From Planctomycetota bacterium (GTDB lineage Bacteria > Planctomycetota > Phycisphaerae > SM23-33): a stretch of DNA of 64,000 nt. The notes under the pieces are model-generated. The model saw only the letters and a program-made list of their open reading frames with translations, had not been told where the DNA came from and did not search any database. Made by a program: the position numbers and the translations under genes. The stretch spans positions 34,497 to 98,496 of the forward strand of contig DAOVZK010000004.1 in assembly GCA_030635145.1 (NCBI GenBank), in the 5' to 3' direction. Shown here piece after piece: positions 13,257 to 48,839 of the stretch (its first letter is position 1; each line of letters starts with the position of its first letter).

Positions 13257-15527
13257 ATGCAGAGTGATCTTCTTACCAATCTAAACGAATCGCAGCGTGA
13301 CGCGGTGCAGCATGTCGACGGGCCGCTGTTGGTGCTAGCCGGGGCGGGGTCGGGCAAAACGCGCGTAATTACGCGGCGGGTTGCGTATCTTGTGCAGCAG
13401 GGCATCCCCGCCCGCAACGTGCTTGCGATTACCTTCACCAACAAAGCTGCCGAGGAGATGCGCCAACGCGTCGCCGAGCTGAACACCCCTTACGGATCGA
13501 CGGTCTGCACTTTTCACGCGTTGTGTGCACGGTTGTTGCGGGAGTTTTCGCAGGAGGCGGGGTTGGCACAGAACTATTCGATTTACGACCGCAGCGATCA
13601 GCTGAAAGTCGCGAAAAAGGCGTTGGCGGAGCTGAATCTTCCCGGTGCGTATCTGACTCCCGGTAAGGCGCACGCGGCGATTTCCAACGCGAAGAATCAG
13701 CTGCAGACGGCGGGGCGATATGCCGAAGTTTCTGGCGATTTTTTCACGCGAAACATCGCCGAAGTCTACCGCCGCTACGAACAGATCCTCGCCGCCAGCA
13801 ACGCCGTCGATTTCGACGATCTGCTGATGCGGGTTGCGTTTTTGATTCGCGACTATCCCGACATCCGCAAATATCTCGCCGACCGCTATCGCTACGTGCT
13901 GATCGACGAGTATCAGGACACCAACCACGCGCAGTACATAATCGCCCACGCCATCGCGATGGATCACAAAAACATTTGTGCCACCGGCGACCCCGACCAG
14001 AGCATTTACGCGTGGCGTGGCGCGGACATCAACAACATCCTCGACTTCGAGAAGGACTATCCCAACGCGAAAGTCGTGCGGCTGGAAGAAAACTACCGCT
14101 CGGTTCAGCCGATATTAACGGCAGCCTCGAATCTCATATCCAACAACATTAACCGCAAAGATAAAAAGCTCATCGCCGTCCGCGAAGGCGGGTGCGACGT
14201 TAACGTAGTTACCGTTGACGACGAGCACGCCGAAGCCCGCGAGGTGGCACTGCGGATCGATAAGCATCGCCTTGACGGCGGAAGCTACGGGGACGTGGCC
14301 GTGTTTTATCGCGTCAACGGGATGTCGCGATTGCTGGAAGAAGCGTTCATCCGCGTGGGAATTCCGTATCGCATTGCTCGCGGTGTGGAGTTTTACAACC
14401 GCAAGGAAATCAAGGATATGCTCGCGTATCTCAAGCTGCTGGTCAACCCCACCGACGACCTGAGCTGCCTGCGCGTTATCAATACTCCCACTCGCGGGAT
14501 CGGGGCAACGACGGTCAAAAAACTGCTGGCCTACGGGGTTATGAACGGAATGAACTTGCTGGAAGCTGCGCGGAATGTCGAGAGCGTTGGGCTGTCGGCG
14601 GGGCCTGTGAAAAAGGTGCGAGCTTTTGGCGAGATGATAACCGAGCTTGCGGGAAATCTCGAACGCGACGTGCGATTTATTATGGAAGACGTTTTTCATC
14701 GCAGCGGGCTGGAAGAGTCGCTGTCGAAGTCGGACGAAGAGTCGCAGCAGGCGCGGTCGAACATTGAGGAGCTTATTTCGACGGCGGCGGAGTTTGACGA
14801 AAAAACCAACGACACCGACGACGGGATAAACGAATATCTGCACGGAATTTCGCTGGTGAGCGACGTCGACCACATGGCCGACAACACCGGGGCGGTGACT
14901 ATGATGACACTGCACGCCGCCAAGGGCCTCGAGTTTCCCGTGGTGTTTATCGTCGGGTGCGAACACGGAATGTTGCCGTTTTCGCGCGAGCCTGGCATGG
15001 GCGATTTGGACGAAGGCTGCGACAAACTCGAGGAAGAACGCCGCTTGATGTTTGTCGGCATGACGCGTACGGAGGATCAGTTGACGTTGAGTAACGTGCG
15101 TGTGCGAATGGTTCGCGGGCAGCGGTTACCGCAGAGCAGTTCGGCGTTTTTGCACGAAATCGGCGAGGACAATATCCAGCGTGACGACCGCACGACACGA
15201 CAAGTTCCGGAAAGGCGTAAGCGGCGTGGCGGATTTTTCAGCGATACCGTCGACCGTGACGAAATCGAAGACCGCAGCGACGAATTTTTCGAAGCCGCCG
15301 GTGGGCTATCACCAAGCGACGATCACGAAGACGCACCACCGCCCTCCGAGTATGAGCATCTTAAGGTCGGGTGCATGATTTCGCACGGGAAATACGGTGT
15401 CGGGAAGGTAGTGAAACTTTCGCGCGCCTGGCCCGACACGCGGGCGACGATTCTGTTTCACAGCTGCGGGCAAAAAACGATTGTGCTGGCGTATACGAAT
15501 GTTGAAATCGTCGATCCGCCGTTCTAG
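13257..15527 (+). CDS. pcrA: ATP-dependent DNA helicase PcrA/UvrD
   Basis: AGAGSGKT, DEYQD, GDPDQSIYAWRGA, TLHAAKGLEF and EERRL motifs. Confidence 0.95.
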   Translation: MQSDLLTNLNESQRDAVQHVDGPLLVLAGAGSGKTRVITRRVAYLVQQGIPARNVLAITFTNKAAEEMRQRVAELNTPYGSTVCTFHALCARLLREFSQEAGLAQNYSIYDRSDQLKVAKKALAELNLPGAYLTPGKAHAAISNAKNQLQTAGRYAEVSGDFFTRNIAEVYRRYEQILAASNAVDFDDLLMRVAFLIRDYPDIRKYLADRYRYVLIDEYQDTNHAQYIIAHAIAMDHKNICATGDPDQSIYAWRGADINNILDFEKDYPNAKVVRLEENYRSVQPILTAASNLISNNINRKDKKLIAVREGGCDVNVVTVDDEHAEAREVALRIDKHRLDGGSYGDVAVFYRVNGMSRLLEEAFIRVGIPYRIARGVEFYNRKEIKDMLAYLKLLVNPTDDLSCLRVINTPTRGIGATTVKKLLAYGVMNGMNLLEAARNVESVGLSAGPVKKVRAFGEMITELAGNLERDVRFIMEDVFHRSGLEESLSKSDEESQQARSNIEELISTAAEFDEKTNDTDDGINEYLHGISLVSDVDHMADNTGAVTMMTLHAAKGLEFPVVFIVGCEHGMLPFSREPGMGDLDEGCDKLEEERRLMFVGMTRTEDQLTLSNVRVRMVRGQRLPQSSSAFLHEIGEDNIQRDDRTTRQVPERRKRRGGFFSDTVDRDEIEDRSDEFFEAAGGLSPSDDHEDAPPPSEYEHLKVGCMISHGKYGVGKVVKLSRAWPDTRATILFHSCGQKTIVLAYTNVEIVDPPF

Positions 15528-15544
15528 GCGTCGTGTTTACGCGA

Positions 15545-16297
15545 TTACCCTTCGCCGCCGATTTTCCAATTTCCTTCGTTGTAGACGTTCATACGATTTC
15601 CACGTAGGAATCCGACGATGGTGATGTTGTGCTGTTTGCCCAGGTCGATCGCCAGTGACGTGACAGCCGACCGCGAAACCAACATCCCCAATCCCACCGC
15701 CGCCGCACGTTTTACGATTCCGCCCGTTAAGCGTCCCATCATGATCAGAAATTTGTCGCTAAGGGTTACGCCTTCGAGAAACGCCTTGCCGATGAGTTTG
15801 TCGAACGCGTTGTAGCGGGCGACGTCCTCGATAAACAGCATGGATTTTTGCCCGTCGGAAAGGGCGGTGGCGTGGACGCAGCCGGTTTGTCCCCAGAGGT
15901 GGCAGCTGTTTTGCAAATCGTCGGCCAACTGAAAAAGATAGCTCGCCGGTACCGCGCCGCTAGAAAGTTTGGCCGGTTGCTTACGGTTACCCGAGCTGAA
16001 ATTCCCACGGATCAGAATTTTTTCCGCCGCCGGTGGTGTTTGAATCGAAATGATATCCTGCGGGCTTTGCAGTTGCAGATTGCTGTCGGTCAGCAGCGTA
16101 CCGATTCCCAGTGCGTCGAGATTTTGCGGCAGGGCACAGACCGTTCGGGTAAAGGCACCATCGTTGACATTCAGTTCTAGCGAAACTTCGGTGACAATGG
16201 TGTCGTTTAGTTTCGCGGGTTCGGCGGGGCCGGTGGATTGAAACTGCTGCATCGGATACTGCGACGTGGTGTTGTTTTTTTGATTGTTTGGGTTCAT
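15545..16297 (-). CDS. fdhD: FdhD/NarQ-family formate dehydrogenase accessory sulfurtransferase (divergent)
   Basis: TGCVHA, EDVARYNAFDKLIG and SRSAVTSLAI motifs; GGAG RBS before ATG 16297. Confidence 0.8.
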   Translation of the reverse strand: MNPNNQKNNTTSQYPMQQFQSTGPAEPAKLNDTIVTEVSLELNVNDGAFTRTVCALPQNLDALGIGTLLTDSNLQLQSPQDIISIQTPPAAEKILIRGNFSSGNRKQPAKLSSGAVPASYLFQLADDLQNSCHLWGQTGCVHATALSDGQKSMLFIEDVARYNAFDKLIGKAFLEGVTLSDKFLIMMGRLTGGIVKRAAAVGLGMLVSRSAVTSLAIDLGKQHNITIVGFLRGNRMNVYNEGNWKIGGEG

Positions 16298-34765: not shown

Positions 34766-36058
34766 CTAGTCGCATCGTTGCCATTCGGGTGGGTCGTTCA
34801 GACGGTACAGCATTTCCCCGGCCTTGGGCACATAGAGCTTACCTTCGTCTTCCTTGCCTTCCCATTCGGCGATGTCGATATCGGCGGGGTCGCGGTAGCC
34901 CATGTTGATCCGTTCGCAAAGCTCCTTCGGAATTCCCGTCGCCAGCGTAACCTTCACTCGCGACTGCTCCACCCCGTCTACAAAAGTGCCGATTCCGCGA
35001 ACATGCGTGCTGTGGGCGAGAATGCCCCACGGATAGTCTTTGAATTTGTCCCATTGCTCGACGAAATACGGCAGCGAATGGTAGCCGATCTGCTCGATGA
35101 CCGCACCGTGCGCGACGGCAAGTTCGTTGATGTGCGGGGCGTAGATAATCAGCTCACCGCCGTCGGCGACGGCGCATTCCATTTTGTACATGCATTTTCC
35201 GCCCGTCCACATTTCGTCGTACATCAGCGGAGCGCGGGATAGAATCGAATCGTACGCGCGGTCGCAGTAGGTGATGTGCGTTTTGTCCGAAAGATCAGCC
35301 GCCGCTGACCAGCTTGCGCGAACCTCATCGAAATATAACCCCGCCAAGTCGCTACCTTTTACGACCATGCTCAAGGCGTACTTGTCCATGTCGATCATGT
35401 CCATAGCCTCGTGCAAAAGTGCGCGGACGGGGGTATCCTTCACGCCGATCATTTTTGGAATCGTGATTAGTGCGCCCAGCCAGTGGAAAAAGTTCAGCAG
35501 CTCCTCGCCGCAAATGCCGGGGAAGAAATATTTCGCACCCCCGGAAAATCCCACGACTTCGTGCGGGAATACCGGCCCGGCGATCATAACGATGTCGTAG
35601 TCGAAGATCATCCTGTTTACGGTGACGTCTATGTCGCGGGAGAAGCGGGCGTTTTCAGGCGCGAGATATTTTTTGATTTCCGCCGCCGAGAACGTGCCGA
35701 TTTTCTTCAACGCGTCGGGGTTCTTCCATTCGTGATTAAAAATTTTGCTGCCGGGCAGCACCTCGCTACGCTGCCCAGGCTCGATGCCGAGAAGTTTGTC
35801 GAGTGAGTCTTCGCTCAGGGCGGGGTGCGTGCCGAGGGCTACGAGAAAATCCAACGCCTTTGCCCTTGGTGCGATATTTTTGTGGAGTTCGCGAGCGACT
35901 TTCGGCAGGGGGCAGGTGCGGGTATGATCGGGAATGATCACCAGCACGCGTTTGCCCTCGGGAGCTATGCGTTCCGCGGCGGCTGCGATTATTTCTTCTA
36001 TTTGCCCATCCGACAGCACAGCATCTTTTTGTCCAAACCCGATTACACTCATCGCCAT
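34766..36058 (-). CDS. Lactate racemase (LarA) family nickel-pincer protein
   Basis: PDHTR, ALGTH and PHEVVGFSGGAKYFFPG motifs. Confidence 0.82.
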   Translation of the reverse strand: MAMSVIGFGQKDAVLSDGQIEEIIAAAAERIAPEGKRVLVIIPDHTRTCPLPKVARELHKNIAPRAKALDFLVALGTHPALSEDSLDKLLGIEPGQRSEVLPGSKIFNHEWKNPDALKKIGTFSAAEIKKYLAPENARFSRDIDVTVNRMIFDYDIVMIAGPVFPHEVVGFSGGAKYFFPGICGEELLNFFHWLGALITIPKMIGVKDTPVRALLHEAMDMIDMDKYALSMVVKGSDLAGLYFDEVRASWSAAADLSDKTHITYCDRAYDSILSRAPLMYDEMWTGGKCMYKMECAVADGGELIIYAPHINELAVAHGAVIEQIGYHSLPYFVEQWDKFKDYPWGILAHSTHVRGIGTFVDGVEQSRVKVTLATGIPKELCERINMGYRDPADIDIAEWEGKEDEGKLYVPKAGEMLYRLNDPPEWQRCD

Positions 36059-36342
36059 TCTCGCTTTCGTCAATAAACAATAATTGTCCAATAATTGTCG
36101 CACGCTTTTCCCGCATGCCGCTACATCGTTTCTTATACCCCCGCGAGAAACTCCGATCAATTGTTTTCCGGTTTTGCACCTTGAATATGCGTCCAAAGAC
36201 ATTGACGCTACCTGTGAGGGGCGCGATTTCTCGAAGAGTGCCGCCCCCTTCGGTGCATAAAAAGTGGGTTATGCAAACTATTGTAAGCAAAAAAAATCAA
36301 AGTCTTTGCATTCTGCCTACTGCAATATACAATTGGAGTACT

Positions 36343-37665
36343 ATGATGCGGATAATACTTATTTCAATGGGCTTTCTTTTGATGATGACTGGTTTTGTGT
36401 CGGCTGAAAGTGAAAGCAAAACGGTCAAGCTTTCTTTCACCAAAAGCAAAAGCGTGCTCCGGCTAAGTTGGCCCATGAAACTCGGGAGCGGCGGATACCT
36501 CTTCAATAGTTCCACAAAGATATACGGGCACGATTTTTCTCTCAAGACCCAGAAAAAAGGCAGAAGCCTCGCCGTAAACCTCACCTCGAACGATGGTTCA
36601 TTTAAGCTGAAGCCCAAGATATATGCACGTAAGCCGATTGCCTTTAACATCCCCGCCAAGCTTGGCGAAAAAAATGTAATGCTGCCGTTGATGATGTCAA
36701 ACATTTTCACATCCGGCAAGGGCAAGAGCGAGGTTTATGCTCGCTACTATCCCGGGTGGGCGATGGCAGGGAAGGTCGGCAAGACGAAAATTTACCTTAT
36801 CGATGCGAATGTCGACACGAAGTTCGACACAAACGGCCGCGACTATATCGCCATCGGTTCATCGTACGCGATAAAACTTTGCAAGCAGACCGTAATCAAC
36901 GGTAAGCTTTATGAGGTATCGATCACCAGCGACGGAAGCGAGCTTACGCTTGAAGATCTCAAATCCGAGAAGCTTTGCAAAGTCGCCCTCAAAGCCCCCA
37001 AAGGCCTCGCCCGCTGGGGAGTGCTTTCTCTCAGCAACAACGAGGGAACATACAACATCGCCGCCAAAAATTGCAACGTGCTACCGGCTGGTACCTATAA
37101 AATCAGCTATGGGATATACGGCAAGGGTACGAATTACCTGTATCTCAGAAGGACCCAAAATTTCGATCCGCAGCTGGAAATTCGCGCGGGTAATATCAAC
37201 ACGATAAATATCGGTGCGCCTTTTGTTCTGAAGTTTAAGGCGACACTTACCGGCAAAACGGTAAAGGTCGATGCCAACATATCGGTCGCCGGGTGTTACG
37301 GTGAATCTTATCGGTACAGGTCATCTGTTAGAGGCAGAGGTGTGCCGCCGTCGGTGGCGATTTACGCGGGCAAAAAACGAGTTAGTACCGGCAAAATGGG
37401 GTTTGGCTGAGGCGGGAGCCTTTGCGGATACTCAAGGCGAGCATCCAAAGTTACGAAAAAAAACGGTTCGGTTGTTGTAGTCAGAACTTATGCGGGTATC
37501 GGCCGCGTTAAGGGCAAGGTTGTTTTTAGCGATGAGTCGAGTTCCGTATCCAAAGAAACGGAAATTGTAGAATACAAGCCCGTAAAAGAAAAACCGAAAG
37601 ATAACCAGACCGGCGAAGCAGAAGATAAGTCAACCGATAAAGAAAAATCGGACGATAAAGAGTAA
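36343..37665 (+). CDS. Putative secreted selenoprotein A, 440 aa; UGA 37408-37410 read as Sec356, motif FG-U-GGSLC
   Basis: GGAG RBS and signal peptide; frame stays open 84 codons past the TGA to TAA 37663-37665, then a terminator; SECIS-like hairpin; paralog at 40980-42278 has TGA at the aligned site. Confidence 0.8.
37420..37450 (+). promoter_or_regulatory. SECIS-like hairpin for UGA 37408
   Basis: CTTT-gc-GGAT-a-CTC[AAGGC]GAG-c-ATCC-AAAG; loop starts 23 nt after the UGA. Confidence 0.55.
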
Positions 37666-37681
37666 ATGCAGATTACAATAC

Positions 37682-37717
37682 ATACCGGGCGTTTTAGCGA
37701 GCGTCCGGTATTTCTCT
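37682..37717 (+). terminator. Intrinsic terminator after the read-through stop of selenoprotein A
   Basis: ATACCGGGCG...CGTCCGGTAT stem followed by TTCTCT. Confidence 0.55.
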
Positions 37718-37779
37718 GCGCGAAATCCCATCTAAAGTCATTGACTAAAACATAATTGCAGACGAAAATAAGATTATCC

Positions 37780-37872
37780 GGAGGTGCCCGGTATCCTGGT
37801 GGTGCCCTTGGTCTTCAAAACCAATGAGGGGCTCAAAAAGTCCTTGGTGGGTTCGATTCCCATTCACCTCCG
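37780..37872 (+). tRNA. selC: tRNA-Sec (anticodon UCA)
   Basis: Acceptor GGAGGTG/CACCTCC with discriminator G; 6-bp D stem; anticodon arm TTGGT-CTTCAAA-ACCAA; long variable arm; GGTTCGATTCC T-loop; no encoded CCA. Confidence 0.93.
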
Positions 37873-37889
37873 TTTTAAGAAGGACGCTG

Positions 37890-38180
37890 ATGACGCAATG
37901 CGAGAACAATATCACCCCCACGCGGGCTGACGAGCGACGCAGTTTATTGCTGCCGCTTGCACTGCTGGTTGCCGGCGCGATATTGTTTGCCGTCGGCTTT
38001 TTCGCAGTCCCGTGGCGTAAGGGCAAACCTGACACCGAGTACGAGTTCAATCGCGCGGTAGTTACAAACAAGCTCCCCGACCTCAATGGTGGCAGCTCCA
38101 AGATGGGGCAGGACGGTAAAACCGCCAAACCATCAAAGGGCGATAAAAAAAACGACGACTTCTGCCCTACGTGAATTTAG
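37890..38180 (+). CDS. Small membrane protein with candidate C-terminal CxxU (…FCPT-U-I*)
   Basis: AGGA RBS; one TM helix; ends TGC CCT ACG TGA ATT TAG TAA; downstream hairpin at SECIS spacing. Confidence 0.6.
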
Positions 38181-38188
38181 TAAATTTC

Positions 38189-38207
38189 GGTTACGCGTGC
38201 CGTGACC
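38189..38207 (+). promoter_or_regulatory. SECIS-like hairpin for UGA 38172
   Basis: GGTTACG[CGTGC]CGTGACC; loop starts 21 nt after the UGA. Confidence 0.5.
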
Positions 38208-38214
38208 ACCAGTA

Positions 38215-38372
38215 CTCTGTCCCATGAATAATGTTGTGTAGATGCGCCGTGCCGATGAGGTAGATGCAAAGAAGAAAAAAGGTTGCATATTAGTGGATAT
38301 TCCGCCTTTTTTCTGATGCAGCATATGCCTTGTCGCCACAAGCAGGTACCAATCAAAATTCATGGGACAGAG
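38215..38372. mobile_element. MITE-like element with perfect 15-bp terminal inverted repeats
   Basis: CTCTGTCCCATGAAT (38215-38229) and ATTCATGGGACAGAG (38358-38372). Confidence 0.7.
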
Positions 38373-38431
38373 CCTAGACCCCCAGCTCTAGGTTGCAACT
38401 GATGTGGAGCAAAATTTAACGACGAAAGAAT

Positions 38432-39235
38432 ATGGCGAAAAAACTCAGCTATTTCCGACTCCGGCGAATCGTACAGTTTCTGGTTCTACCGGTCTGGATG
38501 CTGCCGATAGCTGCACTTCGCGGAATACCGGGGTGCGTTTTTCACTGCTACGCCTGCCCGCTGAGTTCCTTTGCCTGCCCCATCGGGCTTATTGCCACAT
38601 CAATGGCGATGGGATTGGTGCCGTTGATGGTGCTGGGCGTAATCTTTGTCGCCGCTGCCGCCGTCGGTAGTGCGATTTGTGGATGGTTGTGCCCGTTCGG
38701 GTTACTGCAGGATTTGTTCCATAAAATTCCGACGCCGAAATTCAAACTCCCCGCATGGACAGGAATCGGTAGATACATCACGCTCATCGCGTTGGTGATC
38801 GTAGGGCCGCTGCTTTGGGGCAAGTCGGTCGACAACTACGCTTTCATCTGCAACCTATGCCCGGCCGGTGCAATCGAAGCCGGCCTGCCTCGTATAATCG
38901 CCGGACAAGTCTCCGTCGAAAGGCTGCTGAGCGTCAAATATATTGCCGCCGCGGTAATCGTGGGGCTGATGCTTTTCACGTATCGCCCGTGGTGTCGAAT
39001 GCTCTGCCCGCTGGGCGGATTTTTCGCGCTATTCAATCGCGTGAGCGTTTTGTTCCTTCGCCTTAAAACCGACAAATGCAGCAACTGCAAAACCTGCATC
39101 GTTGACTGCCCCTGCGATATCGACGTCAAAAAGGCCATCAACACATCAAGCTGCATACGCTGCATGAAATGCACTCAATGCAAAGTAGTTTCCCCGACAA
39201 CCATATTCGAAAAATTCGGTAACGGCGGGGAGTAA
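38432..39235 (+). CDS. Membrane 4Fe-4S binding protein (NapH/MauN/YccM-like polyferredoxin)
   Basis: CYACP..CPIG, CGWLCPFG, CNLCPAG and WCRMLCPLG motifs; two CxxCxxC clusters. Confidence 0.88.
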   Translation: MAKKLSYFRLRRIVQFLVLPVWMLPIAALRGIPGCVFHCYACPLSSFACPIGLIATSMAMGLVPLMVLGVIFVAAAAVGSAICGWLCPFGLLQDLFHKIPTPKFKLPAWTGIGRYITLIALVIVGPLLWGKSVDNYAFICNLCPAGAIEAGLPRIIAGQVSVERLLSVKYIAAAVIVGLMLFTYRPWCRMLCPLGGFFALFNRVSVLFLRLKTDKCSNCKTCIVDCPCDIDVKKAINTSSCIRCMKCTQCKVVSPTTIFEKFGNGGE

Positions 39236-39263
39236 CCCGTCGGCCGAATCTTGGCGGGAATTC

Positions 39264-39518
39264 TCAACAGCAGCAACCGTTGCTGTCGCCACCGACTTTT
39301 TTCATTTGTGCCACGTAGAACATCCGCACAACCGCGCCACCGACACCCACCCCCAGCCAAGCCGCCTCGTCAAGTTGCTCTTGCGTAATACCCATCTCAC
39401 GCGATTTTTTGTAATGAACCTCAAAACACTCTTCACATCGCCCGAGAATTATCAATGCAAACGTCATCAGTTGCTTGGTTTTCGCATCAATTTGCCCATC
39501 CGCGGAGACGGCCTGCAT
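39264..39518 (-). CDS. Carboxymuconolactone decarboxylase/AhpD-like domain (CxxC), in frame with selD
   Basis: IDAKTKQL...RCEECFEVH...GITQEQLDEA. Confidence 0.8.
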   Translation of the reverse strand: MQAVSADGQIDAKTKQLMTFALIILGRCEECFEVHYKKSREMGITQEQLDEAAWLGVGVGGAVVRMFYVAQMKKVGGDSNGCCC

Positions 39519-39533
39519 GAATGCACCAAATTT

Positions 39534-40976
39534 TTACGCCGAATCTTTTGCCGAATCATCTACAGGCGAATTACCGCAAACGTCACTGCAGCACTCATCT
39601 TGCGATTCCGCCGGTTTTTCGCAGCACGCGTTTTGTGATGGGTGTTGGGGTTCTTTCTCCGCGGAACAGCAGCAGGGCTTGGAGGTTGCTTCCTGCTGAG
39701 GCGAAATTTGATTATTGCAAACAACCTCGATGAAACCGTCAGAGTCCTGCGTAATTTCACCGATCACCCAGGCATTGGTTCCGCTGTTTTTCAGGTCGGT
39801 TAAGGCGTCGGTAAGTTTGTCTTTCGGTATCCCCAGCAGCAGTCCGCCCGACGTCTGCGCGTCGAAGCCCAGATAATACGCACCATCTGACACGCCGTCT
39901 TCTCGCGAGATATCATCCGCGACGAACTCCATATTACGCTCAATCGCACCGGGGATAACATCATCCCCAAGCAATTCAATCGCACCGCTAAACGCCGGTA
40001 ATGCACTCGCGAAAATCTTCGCCGTCACCCCACTGGCTCTAACCATCGCGATGAGATGCCCGAACAATCCGAACCCCGTAACATCGGTGCAGGCTGATGC
40101 GTATTTGCTACCGACGACGGCGGCGGTGTTGTTAAGAGTCGTCATTGACTCGCAGCTTTCGGCAAGTCCGCACTGGTCAGCTCTGCCGATCTGGGATGCG
40201 AACGCCAACACGCCGCTGCCAAGTTTTTTCGTCAGTACCAGCACATCCCCAGTCTTAACCGAATCATGTTTGAGATATTTTTTCTCATCGACCAGCCCCG
40301 TTATGGCGAACCCGAGTTTGATTTCTTCGTCTTTAATGCTGTGCCCGCCGATTAACGCAACCCCCGCGGCGTTGAAAATTTCCTGCGCACCAGCCATCAA
40401 CTCATACATCAATTCCCCGTCGAGCGTTTCGACCGGGAACCCCAGAATGCTAAGGGCGGTTTTTGGTACACCTCCCATGGCGTAGATATCGCTGAGGCAG
40501 TTGGCGGCACAGATTTTACCCATCTGCCTTGCATCGTCCACACATGGTGTCATAACGTCGACGGTTTGCACAATGCATAGTCCGTCGGTCAGCCGATAAA
40601 CACCCGCATCGTCGGCGGCGGGTAGTCCGCAGATAACGTTCGGGTCATTGCTAACGGTCAGCCGTTTGAGGACGGCTTCGAGATCGGCGGGTGGAATTTT
40701 GCTCGCGCACCCGGCGTTATGAACCAGTTGCGTCAGGCGAATGTCTTTGATGTTTTTCGGTTCGGGGCGTTCACCGGCACACGGGCAAATCCCCTGATCT
40801 TTGAAAACATCGCACGGGCAGGGACGTTTGGGATCACATATGCAGTGCCCAAGTTTTCTCGACCGCTGCATAATTCGCCGGCGCTTAACCAGATCGACTT
40901 TCGACATCTTTTTCAAAATTTCCAATCCCTCTAGCACGGCCCCCTTCATCCCGGGGGGACGTGTTGAGGGTTGCAA
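39534..40976 (-). CDS. selD: Selenophosphate synthetase with N- and C-terminal Cys-rich extensions (Cys form)
   Basis: GCASKI, DDAGVY, QTVD, GGHSI, TDVTGFGLFGH and DAQTSGGLL motifs. Confidence 0.95.
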   Translation of the reverse strand: MQPSTRPPGMKGAVLEGLEILKKMSKVDLVKRRRIMQRSRKLGHCICDPKRPCPCDVFKDQGICPCAGERPEPKNIKDIRLTQLVHNAGCASKIPPADLEAVLKRLTVSNDPNVICGLPAADDAGVYRLTDGLCIVQTVDVMTPCVDDARQMGKICAANCLSDIYAMGGVPKTALSILGFPVETLDGELMYELMAGAQEIFNAAGVALIGGHSIKDEEIKLGFAITGLVDEKKYLKHDSVKTGDVLVLTKKLGSGVLAFASQIGRADQCGLAESCESMTTLNNTAAVVGSKYASACTDVTGFGLFGHLIAMVRASGVTAKIFASALPAFSGAIELLGDDVIPGAIERNMEFVADDISREDGVSDGAYYLGFDAQTSGGLLLGIPKDKLTDALTDLKNSGTNAWVIGEITQDSDGFIEVVCNNQISPQQEATSKPCCCSAEKEPQHPSQNACCEKPAESQDECCSDVCGNSPVDDSAKDSA

Positions 40977-40979
40977 ATG

Positions 40980-42278
40980 CTACTTCGTCCTGATTTTCGT
41001 ATCCTTGAGTTTAATTCCAAACGGCCCGGCGGCGACCTTCGGTTTGATCGTAAACACTCCGCTTAAATTCTTTGGCACACTCCACGTGTGCGAGCATGTA
41101 CCACCTCAACCATACTCAAACTTACCCGTGTGGACAAGTTTGCCTTGCTCGTCGAAAACTTCCACTTGAGGTTTGCTGCTGTACATCGAATTAACCATCG
41201 CCGACATCCCCGACACATCGGTTAGCTTGAAATTCATCGTAATCCGCCGGCCGCGAGCTTTGATTTTTATTTGCCCGGTTAGCGGAGCTCCGATAGCCAG
41301 CTCAAAAGTCTTACCAGCTGCTGCATTGAATTTCTTCGCCGTTTTCTGCCGCAAGTTCTGCTGATCAATGCTCAATACATCGCCCTTGGTTGGTTGGATC
41401 TGCGTAAACTGCATCACAGTGTATTTACCGGCGGGAATTTCCATTGGTTTGCTGGAACCATCAAGCATCAGTATGTAGTCTTTACCGATTAGACCGATCG
41501 ACCAGTTATCATGATCGATTTTGAGCGTGGCTGTCTTGGCGGTTGAGGGGGTCGCGACAATTTCCGACTTGTCGGGCGACAACGCCACGTCGTACCAAAC
41601 ACCATCAAGAAGTACCGGTGCACCGTAGAGGGATTTTTTCAATTGATTCGGCTGCTTGAAGTTTCCCTTTCCCGTATCAATCAGCAACGTATCTCCGATT
41701 GTAACTCCGCTATTTTTCTGATATCGCGACTTGCTACCGCAGTTCAGGTTGTTGTTACCATCGACAATACGCACCGGATAGGTTTTGTCGCCAAATTTGC
41801 AGGTACCTTCCAATGCGGTTCCAAGGTATGCAATGATGTATTTATGATCACTGCTTGTATAGATGTGTCCCGAAAGCATTACCGGTATGGATTTACCGTT
41901 ACGTTCTACTTGTAATGTTGCAGGTCCAAAGTTCAAGCGGGAAGGATTACCCTTCTCCCTTTTTTTCAGGGGGACTACTTGCTTGTCGTTAAATTTGCCC
42001 TTGCCGCTGAAGTCAAAACGGACTACGTCGAAGCCTTCGGTGTCGGGTGATTGCGAGTCGATTGCCACGCGGATATTCTTCCCCCGCAGCTTTGTGACGA
42101 GAGCTTTTTTGCTGACGGTACCGTCGCCTTCTTTTGGCTTGGTGAATTGGTGGGCAAACAACGATTGTTGCATTATCGCCTGGCCCTGAGTTGCGGGGAC
42201 TGGTTTGAGATCCCCTTGGGCGATAGTTGCAGTCAAAACAACCAGCAGTAAAATGAACAGACCTATTGACGTTTTCAT
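40980..42278 (-). CDS. Putative secreted selenoprotein B, 432 aa; UGA 41106-41108 read as Sec391, motif YG-U-GGTC
   Basis: Signal peptide; frame continues UGGTCSHTWSVPKNLSG...IRTK to TAG 40980-40982, just before the selD start; lies between selB and selD; SECIS-like hairpin. Confidence 0.85.
41075..41091 (-). promoter_or_regulatory. SECIS-like hairpin for UGA 41106
   Basis: GCACAC[GTGGA]GTGTGC; G-starting loop 20 nt after the UGA, matching the general bacterial SECIS pattern. Confidence 0.7.
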
Positions 42279-42385
42279 TTCGGCCCCTTTCTCGAGGTTG
42301 TATCTCGAAAAATGTTTAACGTATTATACAGGCAACAGATATGCAGCGTCAAAGGGGTTTTTGCGGAAAACACTGCGCCGATGGG

Positions 42386-44332
42386 TTATTCGTTTTCGAG
42401 AATTTCGCGGGCCAGTCGGCCGGGCCGGCGGCGGTTGGCGTTGCGGACGGTCCAATGCGTAACGTCGAAATAATCCAGCAGCGGCACGGCGTATTTTCTG
42501 CTGACACCGATGGCGTCGCGAAACTCAACTGTCTCGAAGAATTTCTGCCCGCGGAACAAATCGAGCACAACTTCGCGCGCCTTATCCACACCGCATTTGT
42601 GCATGTAGACGTTATCAGCTAACCGCACCGCCAAGCTGCGAGAACAAATCAGCTCCAGAACCTCGTCAATTTTTTGCTGCGGAGACTGCAGCTGCTCGGC
42701 AAGCTGATCGGGACGCGGTGGAGCACACAGAGATTTTTTTAATACGCTCAATACTTGTTCGTAAAGTTCTGCAATATCGCTCGGCAGCGAGAGATTAAAT
42801 TCGCAGTGCGAAATTTTCCCCGCCTCTTCGCTGATTTTTCCATCGGCGAGAAGTTTTTCGCAGCACTTGGCGAAAATCGCTTTGGGCAAGGCCGTCTGTG
42901 TAAGCAGGGCAGCTGTGTCGAGCCCCGGTAACTGCGGGTTGGCTGCGTGGAATTGTTCCAGTGCGTGCGTAATAGTTTCACATGCCTGCGAAAAATAATC
43001 CGCACCGGCAATTGAATCCCCAAGAACGATGGCGTCGCCATGCTGCGTAAGGTTTGCGATAATTCCCGCGATTTCATTGTCGGTAAGTTGCAGCATATCC
43101 GCCAGGCCGTCGGTGGTAACCATGCGATCCGAATATTTTAAATAGCGTTTTGCAAAGTTTGTAGCATATTCTGGGTGTTCGATGGCGTCGCTGAGTTGTT
43201 CAAGTTTTTCGATTACTTCAGGCCGGTTGCGGCGTAATTTGCGGTTGCTGCGATCCAGAAACACACCGCCACCCAACGTCGTAAAAATTCCGCCCATCTG
43301 CCCGCGAACAACGAATCGGTCACCCGGAATTACGGGCAGCTTGACAGCGGATCGAAACTGAACATATCCACGCCAGTTCGATTCCATAACACCGGATGAC
43401 AAGGGAACGATTTTGACCGGCACGTCTATGGTGCCGACATGCAGGCGGACTTCGGCATGGTCTTTGATAGGTTTTGCGATGCTCCCCAGCACGCGAAACG
43501 ACGCTTCGAACATCTCGGGTGTCGCTATTTTTCGTTCGCTGAGCAAGCTTCCGCGGGTGCAGTCTTCGGGGGGCGTGTTGGCGAGATTAATCGCCGTACA
43601 TTCGCCCGCCCGGGCTGTGTCGCAGAGCTGCCCGTAAACCTCAAGCCCGCGGACTCGCACTTTTTTTCCCGATGGCCAGGCGCAGAGGGCATCGCCAACG
43701 CTCACGCTACCGCTGCACGGAATTCCCGACGCGACGGTTCCGAACCCCTTGACGTGAAAACTTCGCTCGACCCACTGGCGGTAAAGTCCACCGGTGCTTC
43801 GCTCAGCGGTGGCGTCGACTTCGCGGTTCAGCTCGGTCAGAAAATTGTCGTACCCCTCGCCGGTAATATTGGAAACTTCGCAAACCGCCTTGCCCTCGAG
43901 AAACGTACCCTTAACGAACGACCGTATCTGCCCACCCAGTTCCATCCGCCGTTTTTCACTCACGAGGTCAACCTTAGTCATCACCACCAAACCAAACGTC
44001 ACTCCCATCAGCGTAAGAATATCCAGATGCTCGCGGGTTTGCGGCATGATGCCATCGTCGGCGGCGATAACGAGCATCAGCACATCCACACCGTGCGCAC
44101 CGGCAACCATGTTTCGGATGAACCCCACATGCCCGGGAACGTCCACAATGCCCACAATACGATCATCCGCCATTTTGCACGGGGCAAAACCCAGCTCGAT
44201 AGTCAGCCCGCGCGTTTGCTCTTCAGCGAGCGTATCGGTGTTGCACCCAGTGAGCATTTTCACCAGCGCCGTCTTGCCATGATCCACATGCCCAGCCGTC
44301 CCAAGCATCACGTTTTTACAACGTTGCGTCAT
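42386..44332 (-). CDS. selB: Selenocysteine-specific elongation factor SelB
   Basis: GTAGHVDHGKT, RGLTIELGF and DVPGH motifs; C-terminal winged helix FRDAIGVSRKYAVPLLDYFD. Confidence 0.96.
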   Translation of the reverse strand: MTQRCKNVMLGTAGHVDHGKTALVKMLTGCNTDTLAEEQTRGLTIELGFAPCKMADDRIVGIVDVPGHVGFIRNMVAGAHGVDVLMLVIAADDGIMPQTREHLDILTLMGVTFGLVVMTKVDLVSEKRRMELGGQIRSFVKGTFLEGKAVCEVSNITGEGYDNFLTELNREVDATAERSTGGLYRQWVERSFHVKGFGTVASGIPCSGSVSVGDALCAWPSGKKVRVRGLEVYGQLCDTARAGECTAINLANTPPEDCTRGSLLSERKIATPEMFEASFRVLGSIAKPIKDHAEVRLHVGTIDVPVKIVPLSSGVMESNWRGYVQFRSAVKLPVIPGDRFVVRGQMGGIFTTLGGGVFLDRSNRKLRRNRPEVIEKLEQLSDAIEHPEYATNFAKRYLKYSDRMVTTDGLADMLQLTDNEIAGIIANLTQHGDAIVLGDSIAGADYFSQACETITHALEQFHAANPQLPGLDTAALLTQTALPKAIFAKCCEKLLADGKISEEAGKISHCEFNLSLPSDIAELYEQVLSVLKKSLCAPPRPDQLAEQLQSPQQKIDEVLELICSRSLAVRLADNVYMHKCGVDKAREVVLDLFRGQKFFETVEFRDAIGVSRKYAVPLLDYFDVTHWTVRNANRRRPGRLAREILENE

Positions 44333-45747
44333 TGGGCTGCACCGATCATCGCAAAGGTTTTTGCAATGGCATCTATGTCGCCCGGAAGCAAGGTTCGCAC
44401 ATCGAGAATGACTTTCTCCTCGCTTATACGGCTGAAAATCGGCACCTCGCCCGTTCGCAACTCAGCCCCCAGCGAATCTGCCGACATCCCATCAACGCTA
44501 ACCCCCACGCCGAATCCGGGAAGCTTTTCCATCGGTAACGATCCGCTCCCGAGGAAACCTGCTGAGTCGATGACGGCGGCGGCGACTTTCCCCGAGGCCT
44601 TGCTGATAGCATCACACAACTGCTGCGCCGTTTGCTTAAGTTCGTCGGGCTTCAGCGAGAGCATCATGTAAAGCGGATGTTCGCGGTTGAGCTTTTCACG
44701 ATCACGAAAAAGCATCAATGTTCGCTCAAGCACCATAAGCGAGCTTTTGTCGGCCCGAAACGCACGATACAACGGGTGCTTACGACATTTGTTGATAAAC
44801 TTTTCCTTACCGACGAGAATTCCGCCTTGGGCGGCACCGATGAGTTTGTCGGCGCTGAAAAGTACGATATCGGCCCCGGTTTGCACGGAGTGCTGCACGG
44901 TCGGTTCGTGCGGAAGCCCGTAATCGGCAAGGTCGACAAGTGCCCCGGCCCCAAGGTCGTCGATCATCGGTAAGTCATGCTCGTGGGCAAGGGCGGTGAG
45001 TTCTTCGACGCCTACGCTGCTGGTAAATCCGACGATTCGATAGTTGCTGGGATGTGCGCGGAAGACGGCGGCGGTGTTTTCGGTGAGGGCTTTTTCGTAG
45101 TCGCGCAGATGCGTGCGGTTTGTCGATCCGACTTCGACGAGTTTGCAGCGTGAAAGCTCCATGACCTCCGGTAAGCGAAAGCTCCCGCCGATTTCGATCA
45201 GCTGCCCGCGCGAAACGATGACTTCTTTGTTGCTCGCCATCGCTGCCAACACCAACGTGGTTGCGGCGGCGTTGTTGTTGACCACGATCCCGGCCTCGGC
45301 GCCGGTTAGTTCGCAAAGCATGTTGTTAACTTTGGTGTCACGCTCGCATCGCTTGCCGGTTTTTTCGTCTATCGCAAGCGTTACGTAACCCTTAAGGTCG
45401 TTGATGATGTCGTCGACTACGCAGGTCGGCCAGACGGCACGGCCTAATCCGGTGTGCAGAATGATGCCGGTGGCATTTACGGCCCGTCGCAGATGCGGCC
45501 GCGTTCGCTCGCACAGATTTTGCTGCACGATACCCAAAATGAACTCGCTGCTGATGTGCTGCACTCCGCAGCGGCCGGTGCTGTCGTTGAGAATCTGCTG
45601 GCGCAGAGAATCGATAGCATCTCGCACGCAATTTACCACGAGCGTTCGCGGATGATCTTGCAGCCAAGCCGCCACGATATCAATTTTAATGAGATCATCT
45701 ATCGACGGAAGTTTTCGCAAAAGTTCTTGTTTGATCGCCGCTGCCAT
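44329..45747 (-). CDS. selA: L-seryl-tRNA(Sec) selenium transferase
   Basis: NATGIILHTGLGRA, VNNNAAA, SRGQLIEIGGSFR and FSADKL motifs; ATGA overlap with selB. Confidence 0.96.
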   Translation of the reverse strand: MAAAIKQELLRKLPSIDDLIKIDIVAAWLQDHPRTLVVNCVRDAIDSLRQQILNDSTGRCGVQHISSEFILGIVQQNLCERTRPHLRRAVNATGIILHTGLGRAVWPTCVVDDIINDLKGYVTLAIDEKTGKRCERDTKVNNMLCELTGAEAGIVVNNNAAATTLVLAAMASNKEVIVSRGQLIEIGGSFRLPEVMELSRCKLVEVGSTNRTHLRDYEKALTENTAAVFRAHPSNYRIVGFTSSVGVEELTALAHEHDLPMIDDLGAGALVDLADYGLPHEPTVQHSVQTGADIVLFSADKLIGAAQGGILVGKEKFINKCRKHPLYRAFRADKSSLMVLERTLMLFRDREKLNREHPLYMMLSLKPDELKQTAQQLCDAISKASGKVAAAVIDSAGFLGSGSLPMEKLPGFGVGVSVDGMSADSLGAELRTGEVPIFSRISEEKVILDVRTLLPGDIDAIAKTFAMIGAAQ

Positions 45748-46079: not shown

Positions 46080-46841
46080 CTAGCGGTCGGTTTCTGTAAA
46101 TACCCGTCGCACTTTCAAAAGCACATTTACGAAATCATCGCCTAGCCGATTTCGCGGGCGGGGTAGATCGACCTGGAATTCCGCAACCATTCGGCCTGCC
46201 GCCATGACGACGATGCGGTCGGCAAGGAAAACTGCTTCTTCGAGAGAGTGCGTGACGAACAGCACCGTTTGGTGATCCTCAAACCAAACGTCCAGTAGCT
46301 CACCCTGCAACCGGTGCCGCGTCGGTTCGTCTAAATTCGCAAACGGTTCGTCCATCAGCCAAATTCGCGAACCGGCACACAACGTACGTCCAAGCGCCAC
46401 ACGCTGCCGCATTCCGCCCGAAAGCTCATGCGGAAAACTCTTGGCGACCTTCTGTGGCAGCCCCACCCGCGAAAGTGCCTCCCTGGCAGCAGCGATTCGC
46501 TTGTGCCGTTTGGCACCTTGAATTTCCGGGCCAAGAGCGATATTGTCCAAAACCTTTCGCCACGGTAAGAGGTTTCCCTCTTGCGTCACCAGGCCAATAT
46601 CTGCTGCCCCATTTACGCGACTCGAGTCTACGACCACCTCGCCCGTCGTTGGTTTTTCAAGCCCCGCCGCCAACCGCAGCAACGTGGTTTTACCGCAACC
46701 CGACGCACCCAGCACGCATGTGAGCTGACCTTCGTGGGCTAGTAGATTGAAGTCGCGCACGGCCCACACATCACCTCGACCGGGGGTTGAGAAACACTTC
46801 CCGGCGTTGCTGAATCGAATTAGTTCACGTTTGTCGTTCAT
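46080..46841 (-). CDS. NitT/TauT-family ABC transporter ATPase
   Basis: GASGCGKT, LSGGMRQR and MDEPF motifs. Confidence 0.9.
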   Translation of the reverse strand: MNDKRELIRFSNAGKCFSTPGRGDVWAVRDFNLLAHEGQLTCVLGASGCGKTTLLRLAAGLEKPTTGEVVVDSSRVNGAADIGLVTQEGNLLPWRKVLDNIALGPEIQGAKRHKRIAAAREALSRVGLPQKVAKSFPHELSGGMRQRVALGRTLCAGSRIWLMDEPFANLDEPTRHRLQGELLDVWFEDHQTVLFVTHSLEEAVFLADRIVVMAAGRMVAEFQVDLPRPRNRLGDDFVNVLLKVRRVFTETDR

Positions 46842-46842
46842 A

Positions 46843-47685
46843 CTATCGTTCCTGTACCATCCATCGGGTACTGCGAAGCGAGGCCAGACGTAACACCGCA
46901 TCGAAACACAAGCCAATCAGGCCGATAACGATGATACTTGCGAAGGCGTATTCGTAGGAGGCTGTCTCGTGGGCGACGGCGATCATGTATCCAAGCCCGC
47001 CGCGCGTGCCGGGGAAAATTTCGGCTGCGATAATCACTCGCCAAGCAATTCCACCGGCAAGGCGCAGCCCCGTAAAAATCGCCGGACTCGCACTCGGGAG
47101 CACGATCTTTGTCAGCACGGCAAACTTTCCGGCACCTAAAACCGTCGCGGCCTCGATGTGACTTTGGCGAACATGCTGTGCCCCGGAAGCGGTGTTGAGC
47201 ACAATCGGAAAAAATGCGCCCATCCAGATGACGGCGATTATGGCGAATCGCAGCTGGTCGAGCACCCCGTGCTGCCATGCGTTTTGGCCGTAAACGGCAG
47301 TCGCCGGACTCGACAAACCGAAAACGATAATCGTAATCGGAATCCACGCAATCGGACTTATCGCCATCGCCACAGCAGTAACCGGAGCGAGAATTTCCCT
47401 GCCGGTTCGGCTGCGCCCTATAAGCAGCCCGACAGGGATGCCTGTAATTACAGCCAGCAGAAACCCGCACAACATGCGAAGCACGCTAACGGCAGCGCCG
47501 TCGGCGAGGGATGTCGAGTCCAGGCAGAGCGGCTCGCGAAACGGATGAATCAGAATCTGCACCACCGACCAGACGGACGGGACGACAACGCTGCCGGGGG
47601 CGGTGAAATACCACAGCAAAATCACGCCCATCGGAATCATCGCACCGAGGAGCATTTTTCGGATTGCTGTTCGGGGGGTTATCAT
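46843..47685 (-). CDS. NitT/TauT-family ABC transporter permease
   Basis: IEAATVLGA EAA loop; AWRVIIAAE. Confidence 0.9.
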   Translation of the reverse strand: MITPRTAIRKMLLGAMIPMGVILLWYFTAPGSVVVPSVWSVVQILIHPFREPLCLDSTSLADGAAVSVLRMLCGFLLAVITGIPVGLLIGRSRTGREILAPVTAVAMAISPIAWIPITIIVFGLSSPATAVYGQNAWQHGVLDQLRFAIIAVIWMGAFFPIVLNTASGAQHVRQSHIEAATVLGAGKFAVLTKIVLPSASPAIFTGLRLAGGIAWRVIIAAEIFPGTRGGLGYMIAVAHETASYEYAFASIIVIGLIGLCFDAVLRLASLRSTRWMVQER

Positions 47686-48839
47686 TTTTTGAGAGCACCG
47701 CTCGATTGCAACTCCTCGTAGGCCTGTTTGCACAGCTCAAGGCTGCAGATGTCCTTGATGAAGTTGTCAGGAGAGATGGTTGCGTATTTACCTTTAAACG
47801 TTCCGGTGTCCTGCATCAGGGTGACCCATGTTTTCATTCCCGATATCCAGCTGTCAGTCGGTTCGGCGAGGTATGAAATGGTCGGAACCGACATCACCTC
47901 GACTTCGCGTGGATTTTTCGTCCACCGGGAGGCGCAGTCGATAGCGGTGCCCTGATTATCCTGGATAAGCTTCGTGGCGAGTATGATGCACTTGAGTAAA
48001 GCTTTGACGGCGTCGGGATGGTCTTCGAGAGTTTTGACGGTGGCGCTGACGCAGCAGCATGGGTGGTCGACCCACTTGCCGTTCGGGGGCAGATCGCGCA
48101 GTTCGGCGACTACCTTACCGAGCTTCTTATGTACAGCTACTGCGACAGGGGGCTGATGCATTACGAAACCGTCGATGGCTTGACTTTCGAGAAGTGGTAG
48201 GGGGCTTTTTTCGCTCATCATGTTGATGAGGACCACGCGTGCGTTTTTGTCGGCGGGGTTTTGGGAAAATGGTATGCCCGCGGATTTCAGGGCACCGACA
48301 AAAACGAGTTTGGCGACGGCGGTGGGGGCTTTGTATCCGATTTTCAGTGGCCTTTTGCCGTTTTTGGCGGCTGCGACGAAGGAGTCCCAGTCGTTGATTT
48401 CGCTGCCGGTTCGCATAACAAGCATATCACCGTCGGTTTGCAGCGGACAGATGATCTTAAAGGGCTGACCTTTGTCGGCGAACTTGGCGACGGCTGCGAC
48501 ACCGCCCAAACCAATGTCGAGTTCGCCACGGGTCATGGCGGCGGGCATTCTGCTGCCACCACCAACTTTCACAAATCGCAGCAATGCAAGCTTCTTACCA
48601 TTTTCGATAAGTTCGTAAACTTCCCGCGGTTTGACTTCCTTAAGATAGGGCAGCGATGCTTTTTTGAAGCGCTCGCCCTCCAGGGCAGCTACGAAAAGGG
48701 CTAATTGATGGTCGTGCCCCACATGGCCGACCGTAAGCATAACGGGTGCGCTATCGGAGGGATCCTGAGGCTGCGACGATTTGTTACATCCTAAAACCGC
48801 GATCACAATAAACGAGAACAACAGCATCTTGCTTTTCAT
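47682..48839 (-). CDS. NitT/TauT-family ABC substrate-binding lipoprotein
   Basis: Lipobox VLGC; GHDHQLA and DHPCCC motifs. Confidence 0.85.
   Translation of the reverse strand: MKSKMLLFSFIVIAVLGCNKSSQPQDPSDSAPVMLTVGHVGHDHQLALFVAALEGERFKKASLPYLKEVKPREVYELIENGKKLALLRFVKVGGGSRMPAAMTRGELDIGLGGVAAVAKFADKGQPFKIICPLQTDGDMLVMRTGSEINDWDSFVAAAKNGKRPLKIGYKAPTAVAKLVFVGALKSAGIPFSQNPADKNARVVLINMMSEKSPLPLLESQAIDGFVMHQPPVAVAVHKKLGKVVAELRDLPPNGKWVDHPCCCVSATVKTLEDHPDAVKALLKCIILATKLIQDNQGTAIDCASRWTKNPREVEVMSVPTISYLAEPTDSWISGMKTWVTLMQDTGTFKGKYATISPDNFIKDICSLELCKQAYEELQSSGALKK

Follow-up and report, generated by a model that had tools for sequence, protein, structure and literature searches.

An uncatalogued multi-selenoprotein system, almost certainly recoded at UGA and predicted to be extracytoplasmic, in a selABCD island of Planctomycetota

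We describe a selenium island in a 64,000-nucleotide stretch of DNA (the window; contig DAOVZK010000004.1 of assembly GCA_030635145.1) from a planctomycete of the class Phycisphaerae, whose metagenome-assembled genome (MAG; G000 below) is 2.38 Mb long and 93% complete. The island spans window positions 36343..45747, and all coordinates without a locus name are window positions. It holds selA, selB, selC and selD together with three genes, here called A, B and CPTU (the last after the end of its product), that are interrupted by an in-frame TGA and almost certainly encode selenoproteins, with U standing for selenocysteine (Sec). The relatives named below are MAGs of Phycisphaerae and other Planctomycetota. 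The island contains the following features, where SECIS denotes a selenocysteine insertion sequence:

36343..37665, + strand: gene A, predicted exported selenoprotein of the A subfamily, 440 residues, U356 in G-U-G-G-S-L-C, charged low-complexity tail; A-type TGA homologs in loci L002, L011 and L014
37408..37410, + strand: putative Sec codon TGA of gene A, after TGKMGFG, reading on into G-G-S-L-C
37426..37446, + strand: SECIS-like hairpin of gene A, 5-nt loop 23 nt past the TGA, one mismatch
37780..37872, + strand: selC, tRNA-Sec with anticodon tca (ARAGORN)
37890..38180, + strand: CPTU gene, putative third selenoprotein, 96 residues from a presumed start codon, one N-terminal membrane segment, ending C-P-T-U-I-stop (CxxU)
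38172..38174, + strand: putative Sec codon TGA of the CPTU gene
38189..38207, + strand: SECIS-like hairpin of the CPTU gene, beyond its stop codon, loop 21 nt past the TGA
38432..39235, + strand: NapH/MauN-like membrane 4Fe-4S protein (Pfam Fer4_5), under the NapH cut-off, proposed electron entry point
39264..39518, − strand: CMD/AhpD-like CxxC protein, fused to SelD in many relatives; the TGA after CCC is a true stop
39534..40949, − strand: selD, Cys form, over the NCBIfam cut-off, with a conserved Cys-rich N-terminal extension; likely start 40907
40980..42278, − strand: gene B, predicted exported selenoprotein, 432 residues, U391 in G-U-G-G-T-C, C-terminal Ig-like domain 331-432
41075..41091, − strand: SECIS-like hairpin of gene B, 6 bp, 5-nt loop 20 nt past the TGA
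41106..41108, − strand: putative Sec codon TGA of gene B, after TGKFEYG, reading on into G-G-T-C
42386..44332, − strand: selB (TIGR00475, over cut-off)
44329..45747, − strand: selA (TIGR00474, over cut-off)

A preliminary description of this DNA had grouped the four sel genes with two signal-peptide proteins. This grouping holds: SelA, SelB and SelD pass their NCBIfam cut-offs, ARAGORN finds the tRNA-Sec, and A and B each begin with a hydrophobic stretch. Translation under table 11 indeed halts genes A and B at a TGA directly after TGKMGFG and TGKFEYG, and the frame beyond is open to 440 and 432 residues. The claim that both TGAs occupy the same aligned position is also borne out. BLASTP relates A to B over 89 residues only (E 5e-5), and a profile-profile alignment that includes the TGA covers 241 columns (A112-366 with B129-398, probability 97.5, E 5.9e-12, 21% identity), leaving the N-terminal ~110 residues of the two proteins without alignment. 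A and B had been taken for a paralogous pair; their homology stands, whereas a local duplication does not, as 21% identity and separate clades mark them as distant old subfamilies. The island had further been credited with two selenoproteins, which is right as far as it goes, and the third, CPTU, had been overlooked.

The homologs argue strongly that the TGA is read as Sec. As had been foreseen for standard annotation, 155 of 171 database homologs end at the site, 13 continue with a non-Cys residue and three end otherwise; these ends come from protein records, in which the stop codons themselves are unseen. At the DNA level, TGA is found in 25 of the 26 full matches (19 GTDB loci; L019, cut by a contig end, is excluded), and all 22 B-type matches stop 40-44 codons later. 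Across 126 distinct sites in 95 loci, a tally that leans towards U for reasons given below, the position is U in 119, C in two and another residue or a gap in five, and TAA or TAG occurs at none. The Gly-flanked U followed by Cys of the originally proposed motif, G-U-G-G-x(1-2)-C, is broadly retained, and its better form is [YF]-G-U-G-[GSF]-x-C, with Cys at +4 in 101 of the 119 Sec forms.

This reading is further supported by an RNA signal and by the sequence past the TGA. A hairpin of 6 bp with a 5-nt loop follows 112 of the 119 Sec sites, in 105 of them at exactly 20 nt. Since single-sequence folding of the TGA regions is not significant (z -1.3 to +0.5), the hairpin is claimed from alignment covariation: in 27 sequences 98.8% of positions are paired, with 17 compensatory cells on four of six pairs, a result reached by 0 of 500 shuffles, and slid controls give 6-78%. 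The bacterial SECIS model has an apical loop 16-37 nt after the UGA and a G early in the loop (PMC13188914; here and below, published works are cited for the part of their text that was available). The island hairpins match it, with loops 20-23 nt past the UGA and the G as second loop base if the outer loop bases pair (G-UGG-C), otherwise as third. In the Sec forms of L024, L032 and L033, S-Y-S-C replaces S-Y-S-W and the hairpin loop becomes GTGTC. The sequence past the TGA, which was to be checked for conservation, is conserved and protein-coding: synonymous change amounts to 14.4% within the hairpin, as against 42% upstream and 47.5% past it, and of 108 sites picked by pattern 103 have no stop in this frame for at least 36 codons, compared with 35 and 49 in the shifted frames. 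Coding thus continues to a conserved end, and a stop at the UGA would remove four strands of the Ig-like domain, which supports recoding.

We therefore weigh the TGAs of A, B and CPTU as Sec codons, which the island's SelA/B/C/D would decode, and hold this with very high confidence. That they are true stops, or Trp or Gly codons under another genetic code, would fit the database proteins that end at the site, the folding result and one TGA-bearing genome in which no Sec machinery was detected (G232), but TGA is an ordinary stop in G000, where it ends 216 of 915 long ORFs (open reading frames) and so excludes another code, and the absence of TAA and TAG, the covarying hairpin, the coding signature up to a conserved end, a TGC in place of TGA in two genomes that lack both selA and selD, and the same tail read through by non-Sec homologs leave this alternative largely refuted and very improbable.

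The CPTU protein behaves similarly. In a sample of 301 genomes of the class, 27 have CPTU homologs and all 27 are selA-positive. Each of the 25 sites that were read has the TGA, one or two further codons, the hairpin and then a NapH-like Fer4_5 gene; L112 and L122, which have no CPT site under the search pattern, are excluded from this count. The CPTU hairpin also covaries (10 sequences, 96.6% paired, five of six pairs, 1 of 500 shuffles) and overlaps the start of the Fer4_5 gene in relatives. The protein matches no NCBIfam family, and the positive residues ahead of its membrane segment suggest that its tail lies outside the cytoplasm. In relatives the CPTU and Fer4_5 genes abut; in the window they are separated by an insert of ~160 nt, around which an imperfect 31-nt inverted repeat is found (38215-38245 / 38342-38372), and which is possibly a small mobile element. 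In another lineage, seven loci (six distinct) have, after selD-CMD and in place of CPTU, a lipoprotein that ends G-T-x-[FY]-G-TGA-G-K-stop with an 8-bp hairpin:

L014:6818-7834, + strand: ResA/TlpA-like U lipoprotein; also in L011, L012, L013, L036, L037 and L060

By its sequence this is a candidate further selenoprotein family, and it looks as if the TlpA-like protein replaces CPTU as the outside reductant.

The structure of the Sec-bearing part was addressed by modelling, and an Ig-like (immunoglobulin-like) sandwich is predicted. The AlphaFold model of B is all-beta (predicted local distance difference test, pLDDT, 91.7) and places U391 on the hairpin loop that links strands 381-386 and 395-400, with four more strands after it. 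Residues 331-432 form a predicted Ig/macroglobulin-like sandwich (Z 8-10), and the fold searches bear chiefly on this C-terminal third of the protein. The top Foldseek row for the domain, 1v8h (E 1.3e-3, template modelling score, TM, 0.42), is weak and tied with unrelated sandwiches. We take this entry to be SoxZ, the partner of the GGCGG carrier SoxY. Other weak matches are to the S-layer protein Sap (E 0.028, PDB sequence search) and, for B, to DUF6436 (E 0.18). A thioredoxin fold finds no support: A and B are all-beta, and no thioredoxin-type Pfam or NCBIfam match passes E 0.1 for A, B or CPTU. The Sec module comprises ~100 residues and either ends proteins of about 200, 430 or 500+ residues or precedes multi-transmembrane or FnIII/LamG tails, and 138 of 148 full-length members have a hydrophobic N-terminal stretch. 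A and B are predicted to be exported and to expose a U-x3-C loop.

The Ig-module family is found in 63 of the 301 class genomes and selA in 110, and several paralogs occur per genome. Among the matches listed (20 further matches lie outside), selA is present in 49 of the 51 class genomes with a TGA form; the two selA-negative ones are G063, which has selB, and G232. In a second sample, 301 genomes of the phylum, 46 have a match, with up to eight matches per genome, and outside the class 38 of 42 are selA-positive. The four that are not comprise G361, with a Sec-type SelD, G369 and G514, with Cys forms and without selD, and G529, with neither Sec nor Cys. TGA forms thus lie in Sec-positive genomes, as had been expected, with the single exception of G232. 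The two Cys forms have a TGC codon and no hairpin, in genomes without selA and selD. No Cys stands at the Sec position among the 171 database proteins, nor in CPTU, and a targeted Sec-domain profile search for long Cys homologs found only the window's own protein (7,999 candidates scored; weak evidence). In a midpoint-rooted FastTree phylogeny of 110 sequences the Cys pair is nested among the Sec forms (supports 0.55, 0.90 and 0.96), which suggests that it arose by loss of Sec to Cys. Both Cys forms (L132 in G514, L133 in G369) lie away from any sel gene and directly behind a gene that we take, from its sequence, to be ECF-sigma-like (extracytoplasmic function). The Ig-module profile reaches 2,652 clusters at 50% identity, 344 of them at E 1e-30. 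Copies of the whole domain set with neither Sec nor Cys (P0061, P0149, P0154, P0159 and P0166; L063 and L065) are fused behind an M56 peptidase or behind proteins of TPR/BNR type, 1,300-1,400 residues long.

That the family had not been recognised before agrees with our searches. For A, B, the Sec domain and CPTU, no profile in Pfam, NCBIfam 20.0 or the PDB sequence families matches over its cut-off (best E 0.006 in Pfam, for one of 25 members, and E 0.028 in the PDB), and no row of the 119-family catalogue in Table 1 of a 2026 review corresponds to it (PMC13188914). We found no description of the family in the literature, although it might be included in the candidate lists of Haft and Tolstoy 2025, which appear here as rows of the review table and NCBIfam models, or of Deng et al. 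2026 on groundwater MAGs, known through citation. The BSepDB searches reported selenoprotein families only (PMC13326102), and deep-Sep may miss families without Cys homologs; each of its own families has Cys counterparts in numerous organisms, compared with two of 126 sites here (PMC12013277). Catalogued selenoproteins of the GUxG type (hypothetical protein DG NF049953, YeeE GUxSG and the CTP-synthase-related GxUxG; PMC13188914) share the Gly-flanked Sec with A and B, but neither the full proteins nor the Sec domain of A and B match them in NCBIfam 20.0.

Two published systems come close. MccSep/ExtKL, a multiheme selenoprotein of Geobacter (NF040886), is a periplasmic reductase of polysulfide and selenite whose Sec sits on a G-U loop projecting from an Ig-like domain (10.1101/2025.11.18.688581). 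The periplasmic location and the C-terminal Ig-like sandwich (both predicted for A and B), and Cys forms nested within Sec forms, mostly from MAGs, are common to both. MccSep differs in having five CxxCH heme motifs, of which A, B and the 171 homologs have none, and a heme-ligating Cys where A and B have a resolving Cys 4-5 residues past U; moreover, A and B do not match NF040886, and the MccSep structure did not appear among the matches listed in fold searches with the Ig domain. The SAO system (Haft and Gwadz; 10.1101/2022.07.06.499078) resembles the island in its multiple selenoproteins per neighbourhood, its ABC (ATP-binding cassette) importer with a Cys-rich binding protein, its NF040772 double-cubane reductases with activase and its genes truncated at UGA. 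There, however, Sec resides in a transporter or a MerB-like lyase, whereas the Sec residues here belong to Ig modules predicted to be exported and to a CxxU protein of the membrane, and the Planctomycetota island brings its own selABCD. No SAO model is matched over cut-off (SaoX 33.8 of 300 bits, SaoP 119 of 295), and the SaoX, SaoP, SaoB, SaoL, SaoC and SaoT models find nothing else among 13 window proteins or 31 neighbourhood representatives.

The remaining likenesses are looser. Thiol-reducing chains outside the cytoplasm run from DsbD or CcdA to ResA/TlpA. Like these chains and the NapH/MauN ferredoxins (TIGR02163), the island sets a membrane electron donor beside an outward-facing CxxC-type shuttle, with a ResA-like protein in one lineage, but the shuttle here is a CxxU tail outside the thioredoxin fold, the acceptors are Ig folds, and the Fer4_5 protein scores 45 against the 213-bit NapH cut-off. 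SoxYZ-type carriers combine an Ig-like fold with a GGCGG arm, which is C-terminal there, while the Sec loop here is internal. The island system is thus akin in logic to SAO and, as an analogy, finds in MccSep the nearest precedent of a relay, and it is a member of no system examined.

The gene neighbourhoods tie the family to Sec metabolism. Sel genes (selA, selB or selD) are carried by 27 of 48 loci fetched regardless of context, some of them short or near-duplicate. The usual order in relatives is selA-selB-family(1-3)-selD-CMD followed by selC, and a B-type gene lies between selB and selD in many. Recurring neighbours are a NitT/TauT ABC transporter, porins of three families, an S-adenosylmethionine (SAM) methyltransferase, and double-cubane and related proteins with an activase. 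In the window the transporter adjoins selA:

46080..48839, − strand: NitT/TauT-type ABC transporter (ATPase, permease and H-P-C-C-C binding protein), co-oriented with and directly upstream of selA

The double-cubane reductase occurs in 35 of 54 class genomes with both selA and the family and in one of 56 with selA alone (kin genomes, not independent), and 36 of the 37 genomes of the class sample with the double-cubane enzyme (NF040772) have the family. A check of six families in G000 showed no Sec client besides the three island genes: FdhA and SelD have Cys, and TGA is absent from the AhpC, Trx, FlpD, HdrA-like and NiFe matches, the NiFe match covering profile positions 1-77, short of the Sec site. 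The Sec machinery of G000 seems to exist mainly for the three island proteins. No other read-through gene emerged convincingly from a dicodon scan of G000, though the scan is insensitive, with A and B outside the top 70 of 259; one candidate, C45:16170, was rejected as two abutting genes. A Sec at the CMD stop (CCC-TGA, 39264) was likewise rejected, because the homologs stop at TAG (10), TAA (7) or TGA (7), with two cut off. The N-terminal extension of SelD reads H-C-x-C...P-C-P-C...C-x-C and has no Pfam match, and SelD is fused to CMD in many relatives. The extension presumably resembles ferredoxin-thioredoxin reductase.

What the three proteins do may be pictured as a selenol relay outside the cytoplasm, one that starts at the membrane 4Fe-4S protein and leads to the Ig modules; we give it about an even chance. 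SelA/B/C/D would insert Sec at the three UGAs, each with its short SECIS hairpin downstream; A and B would be exported all-beta proteins whose last Ig-like domain displays U-G-G-x-C on a Gly-rich hairpin loop; and the small protein would hold C-P-T-U on a tether outside the cytoplasm. The NapH-like protein could then hand electrons of the membrane pool to the CxxU tether (or the TlpA-like protein), which would reduce the U-x3-C loops of the Ig modules, and the loops, once reduced, could attack or retain an external sulfur, selenium or metal(loid) compound. Where the island is fuller, the product may enter through the porin and the CCC-motif ABC transporter and then meet the methyltransferase and double-cubane reductases. 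The relay is proposed because the CPTU gene is followed by Fer4_5 in 25 of 25 loci, its hairpin overlaps the start of that gene, and all 27 genomes with CPTU are selA-positive. A wider reading, which we put forward tentatively as possible but doubtful, is a self-contained cassette with its own Sec machinery that would form a complete heme-free, thioredoxin-free transmembrane selenol electron chain in anaerobic planctomycetes, starting at the 4Fe-4S protein, passing through the CxxU tether and ending at a mobile U-x3-C Ig module placed on many surface proteins, and that would reduce outside S, Se or metal(loid) compounds and supply the double-cubane enzymes.

Several observations weigh against this interpretation. 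The predicted sandwich is of a generic kind: its fold matches are unspecific ones to Ig, macroglobulin and FnIII domains, and none is outstanding. CPTU occurs in 27 of the 301 class genomes and the family in 63, so that the Fer4_5-CPTU donor is not universal; the resolving Cys is lacking in 13 of the 119 Sec forms; and the double-cubane enzyme was not found in G000. Thirteen full-length homologs, some of them joined to an M56 peptidase or TPR protein, lack both Sec and Cys, and the domain can therefore function without a selenol. G232, 94% complete, carries an intact short TGA form with its hairpin (L131, G232:C22:2650-2910), and selA, selB and selD were not found in it. Finally, the 126-site tally favours U, as the profile was built on TGA forms and 20 loci were chosen from TGA hits, and the sampled genomes of class and phylum are kin, so that co-occurrence counts overstate.

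The rival that survives best, though we consider it rather unlikely, is a capture system like SAO, in which the exported Sec loops would act as ligands of a soft metal or organometal(loid) that is then passed to the CCC-motif ABC transporter; reduction would be cytoplasmic only, by the double-cubane enzyme and methyltransferase, and CPTU/Fer4_5 would merely keep the selenols reduced. The binding protein and permease do resemble SaoX (E 1.9e-8) and SaoP (E 2.4e-34), under cut-off, H-P-C-C-C is kept in nine of nine binding proteins, and the islands include porins, SAM methyltransferase, activase and double-cubane genes, to which SAO is itself linked (10.1101/2022.07.06.499078). Multiple paralogs per genome and lectin/FnIII fusions also fit binding. 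However, ABC genes lie near the family in only three of 29 unbiased loci of at least 6 kb, the recurring clusters showed neither a MerB-like lyase nor an efflux pump, and the U-x3-C of 101 in 119 Sec forms, with a dedicated ferredoxin-coupled CxxU protein, fits cycling.

Selenium scavenging, in which the G-U-G-G loop would trap scarce Se in a selenenyl adduct and feed it to the ABC transporter and SelD-CMD, appears improbable. The place of B between selB and selD, the 27 of 48 unbiased loci with sel genes, double-cubane proteins that track SelD and the top Foldseek row would suit it, yet the idea is circular in G000, which shows no other Sec client among the six families, 56 selA-positive class genomes lack the family, and the 1v8h match is level with unrelated sandwiches. 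We give an equally small chance to a role in the envelope, in which the Ig module would either join surface proteins through Se-S or Se-Se cross-links or serve as a redox-sensing surface domain. The all-beta multi-domain build, DxNxD-like loops, LamG/FnIII and multi-transmembrane fusions, up to eight matches per genome, the weak Sap match and the presumed ECF-sigma-like gene ahead of both Cys forms are consistent with such a role; a structural protein would not be expected to be so closely linked with sel genes, with double-cubane enzymes and with a ferredoxin-coupled CxxU protein.

Judged on sequence evidence, the observation is real, and the island encodes an uncatalogued multi-selenoprotein system of Planctomycetota that is almost certainly recoded, brings its own Sec machinery and is predicted to act outside the cytoplasm. 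It would bring at least two families new to the selenoprotein catalogues, that of the Ig module and that of the CPTU membrane protein, with the TlpA-like G-U-G-K form as third candidate, and would correct database gene models that now stop 40 to 570 residues short. It would also account for the retention of selABCD in some planctomycetes despite Cys-form FdhA and SelD, and offers testable partners for the unexplained link between double-cubane proteins and selenium. Should the cassette reading be true, the family could be among the larger bacterial selenoprotein superfamilies, hidden by a near-lack of Cys homologs, and would give a clue to the natural substrate of the double-cubane reductases.

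Some further genes beside these islands deserve mention. A gene for a LarA-like nickel-pincer racemase/epimerase (34766-36202) borders the island in the window and is found in no related locus. In L022 an exported protein without a family match (15000-16292, + strand) has G-G-TGA-C-P-P near its N-terminus and adjoins four family paralogs and selD. Two prepilin-type (DUF1559-like) genes beside selA, L027:6392-7309 and L030:1741-2592 (both − strand), have a TGA after Gly; the gene in L027 is without a SECIS-like hairpin, and the gene in L030 has one and would end U-K-P-S-stop.

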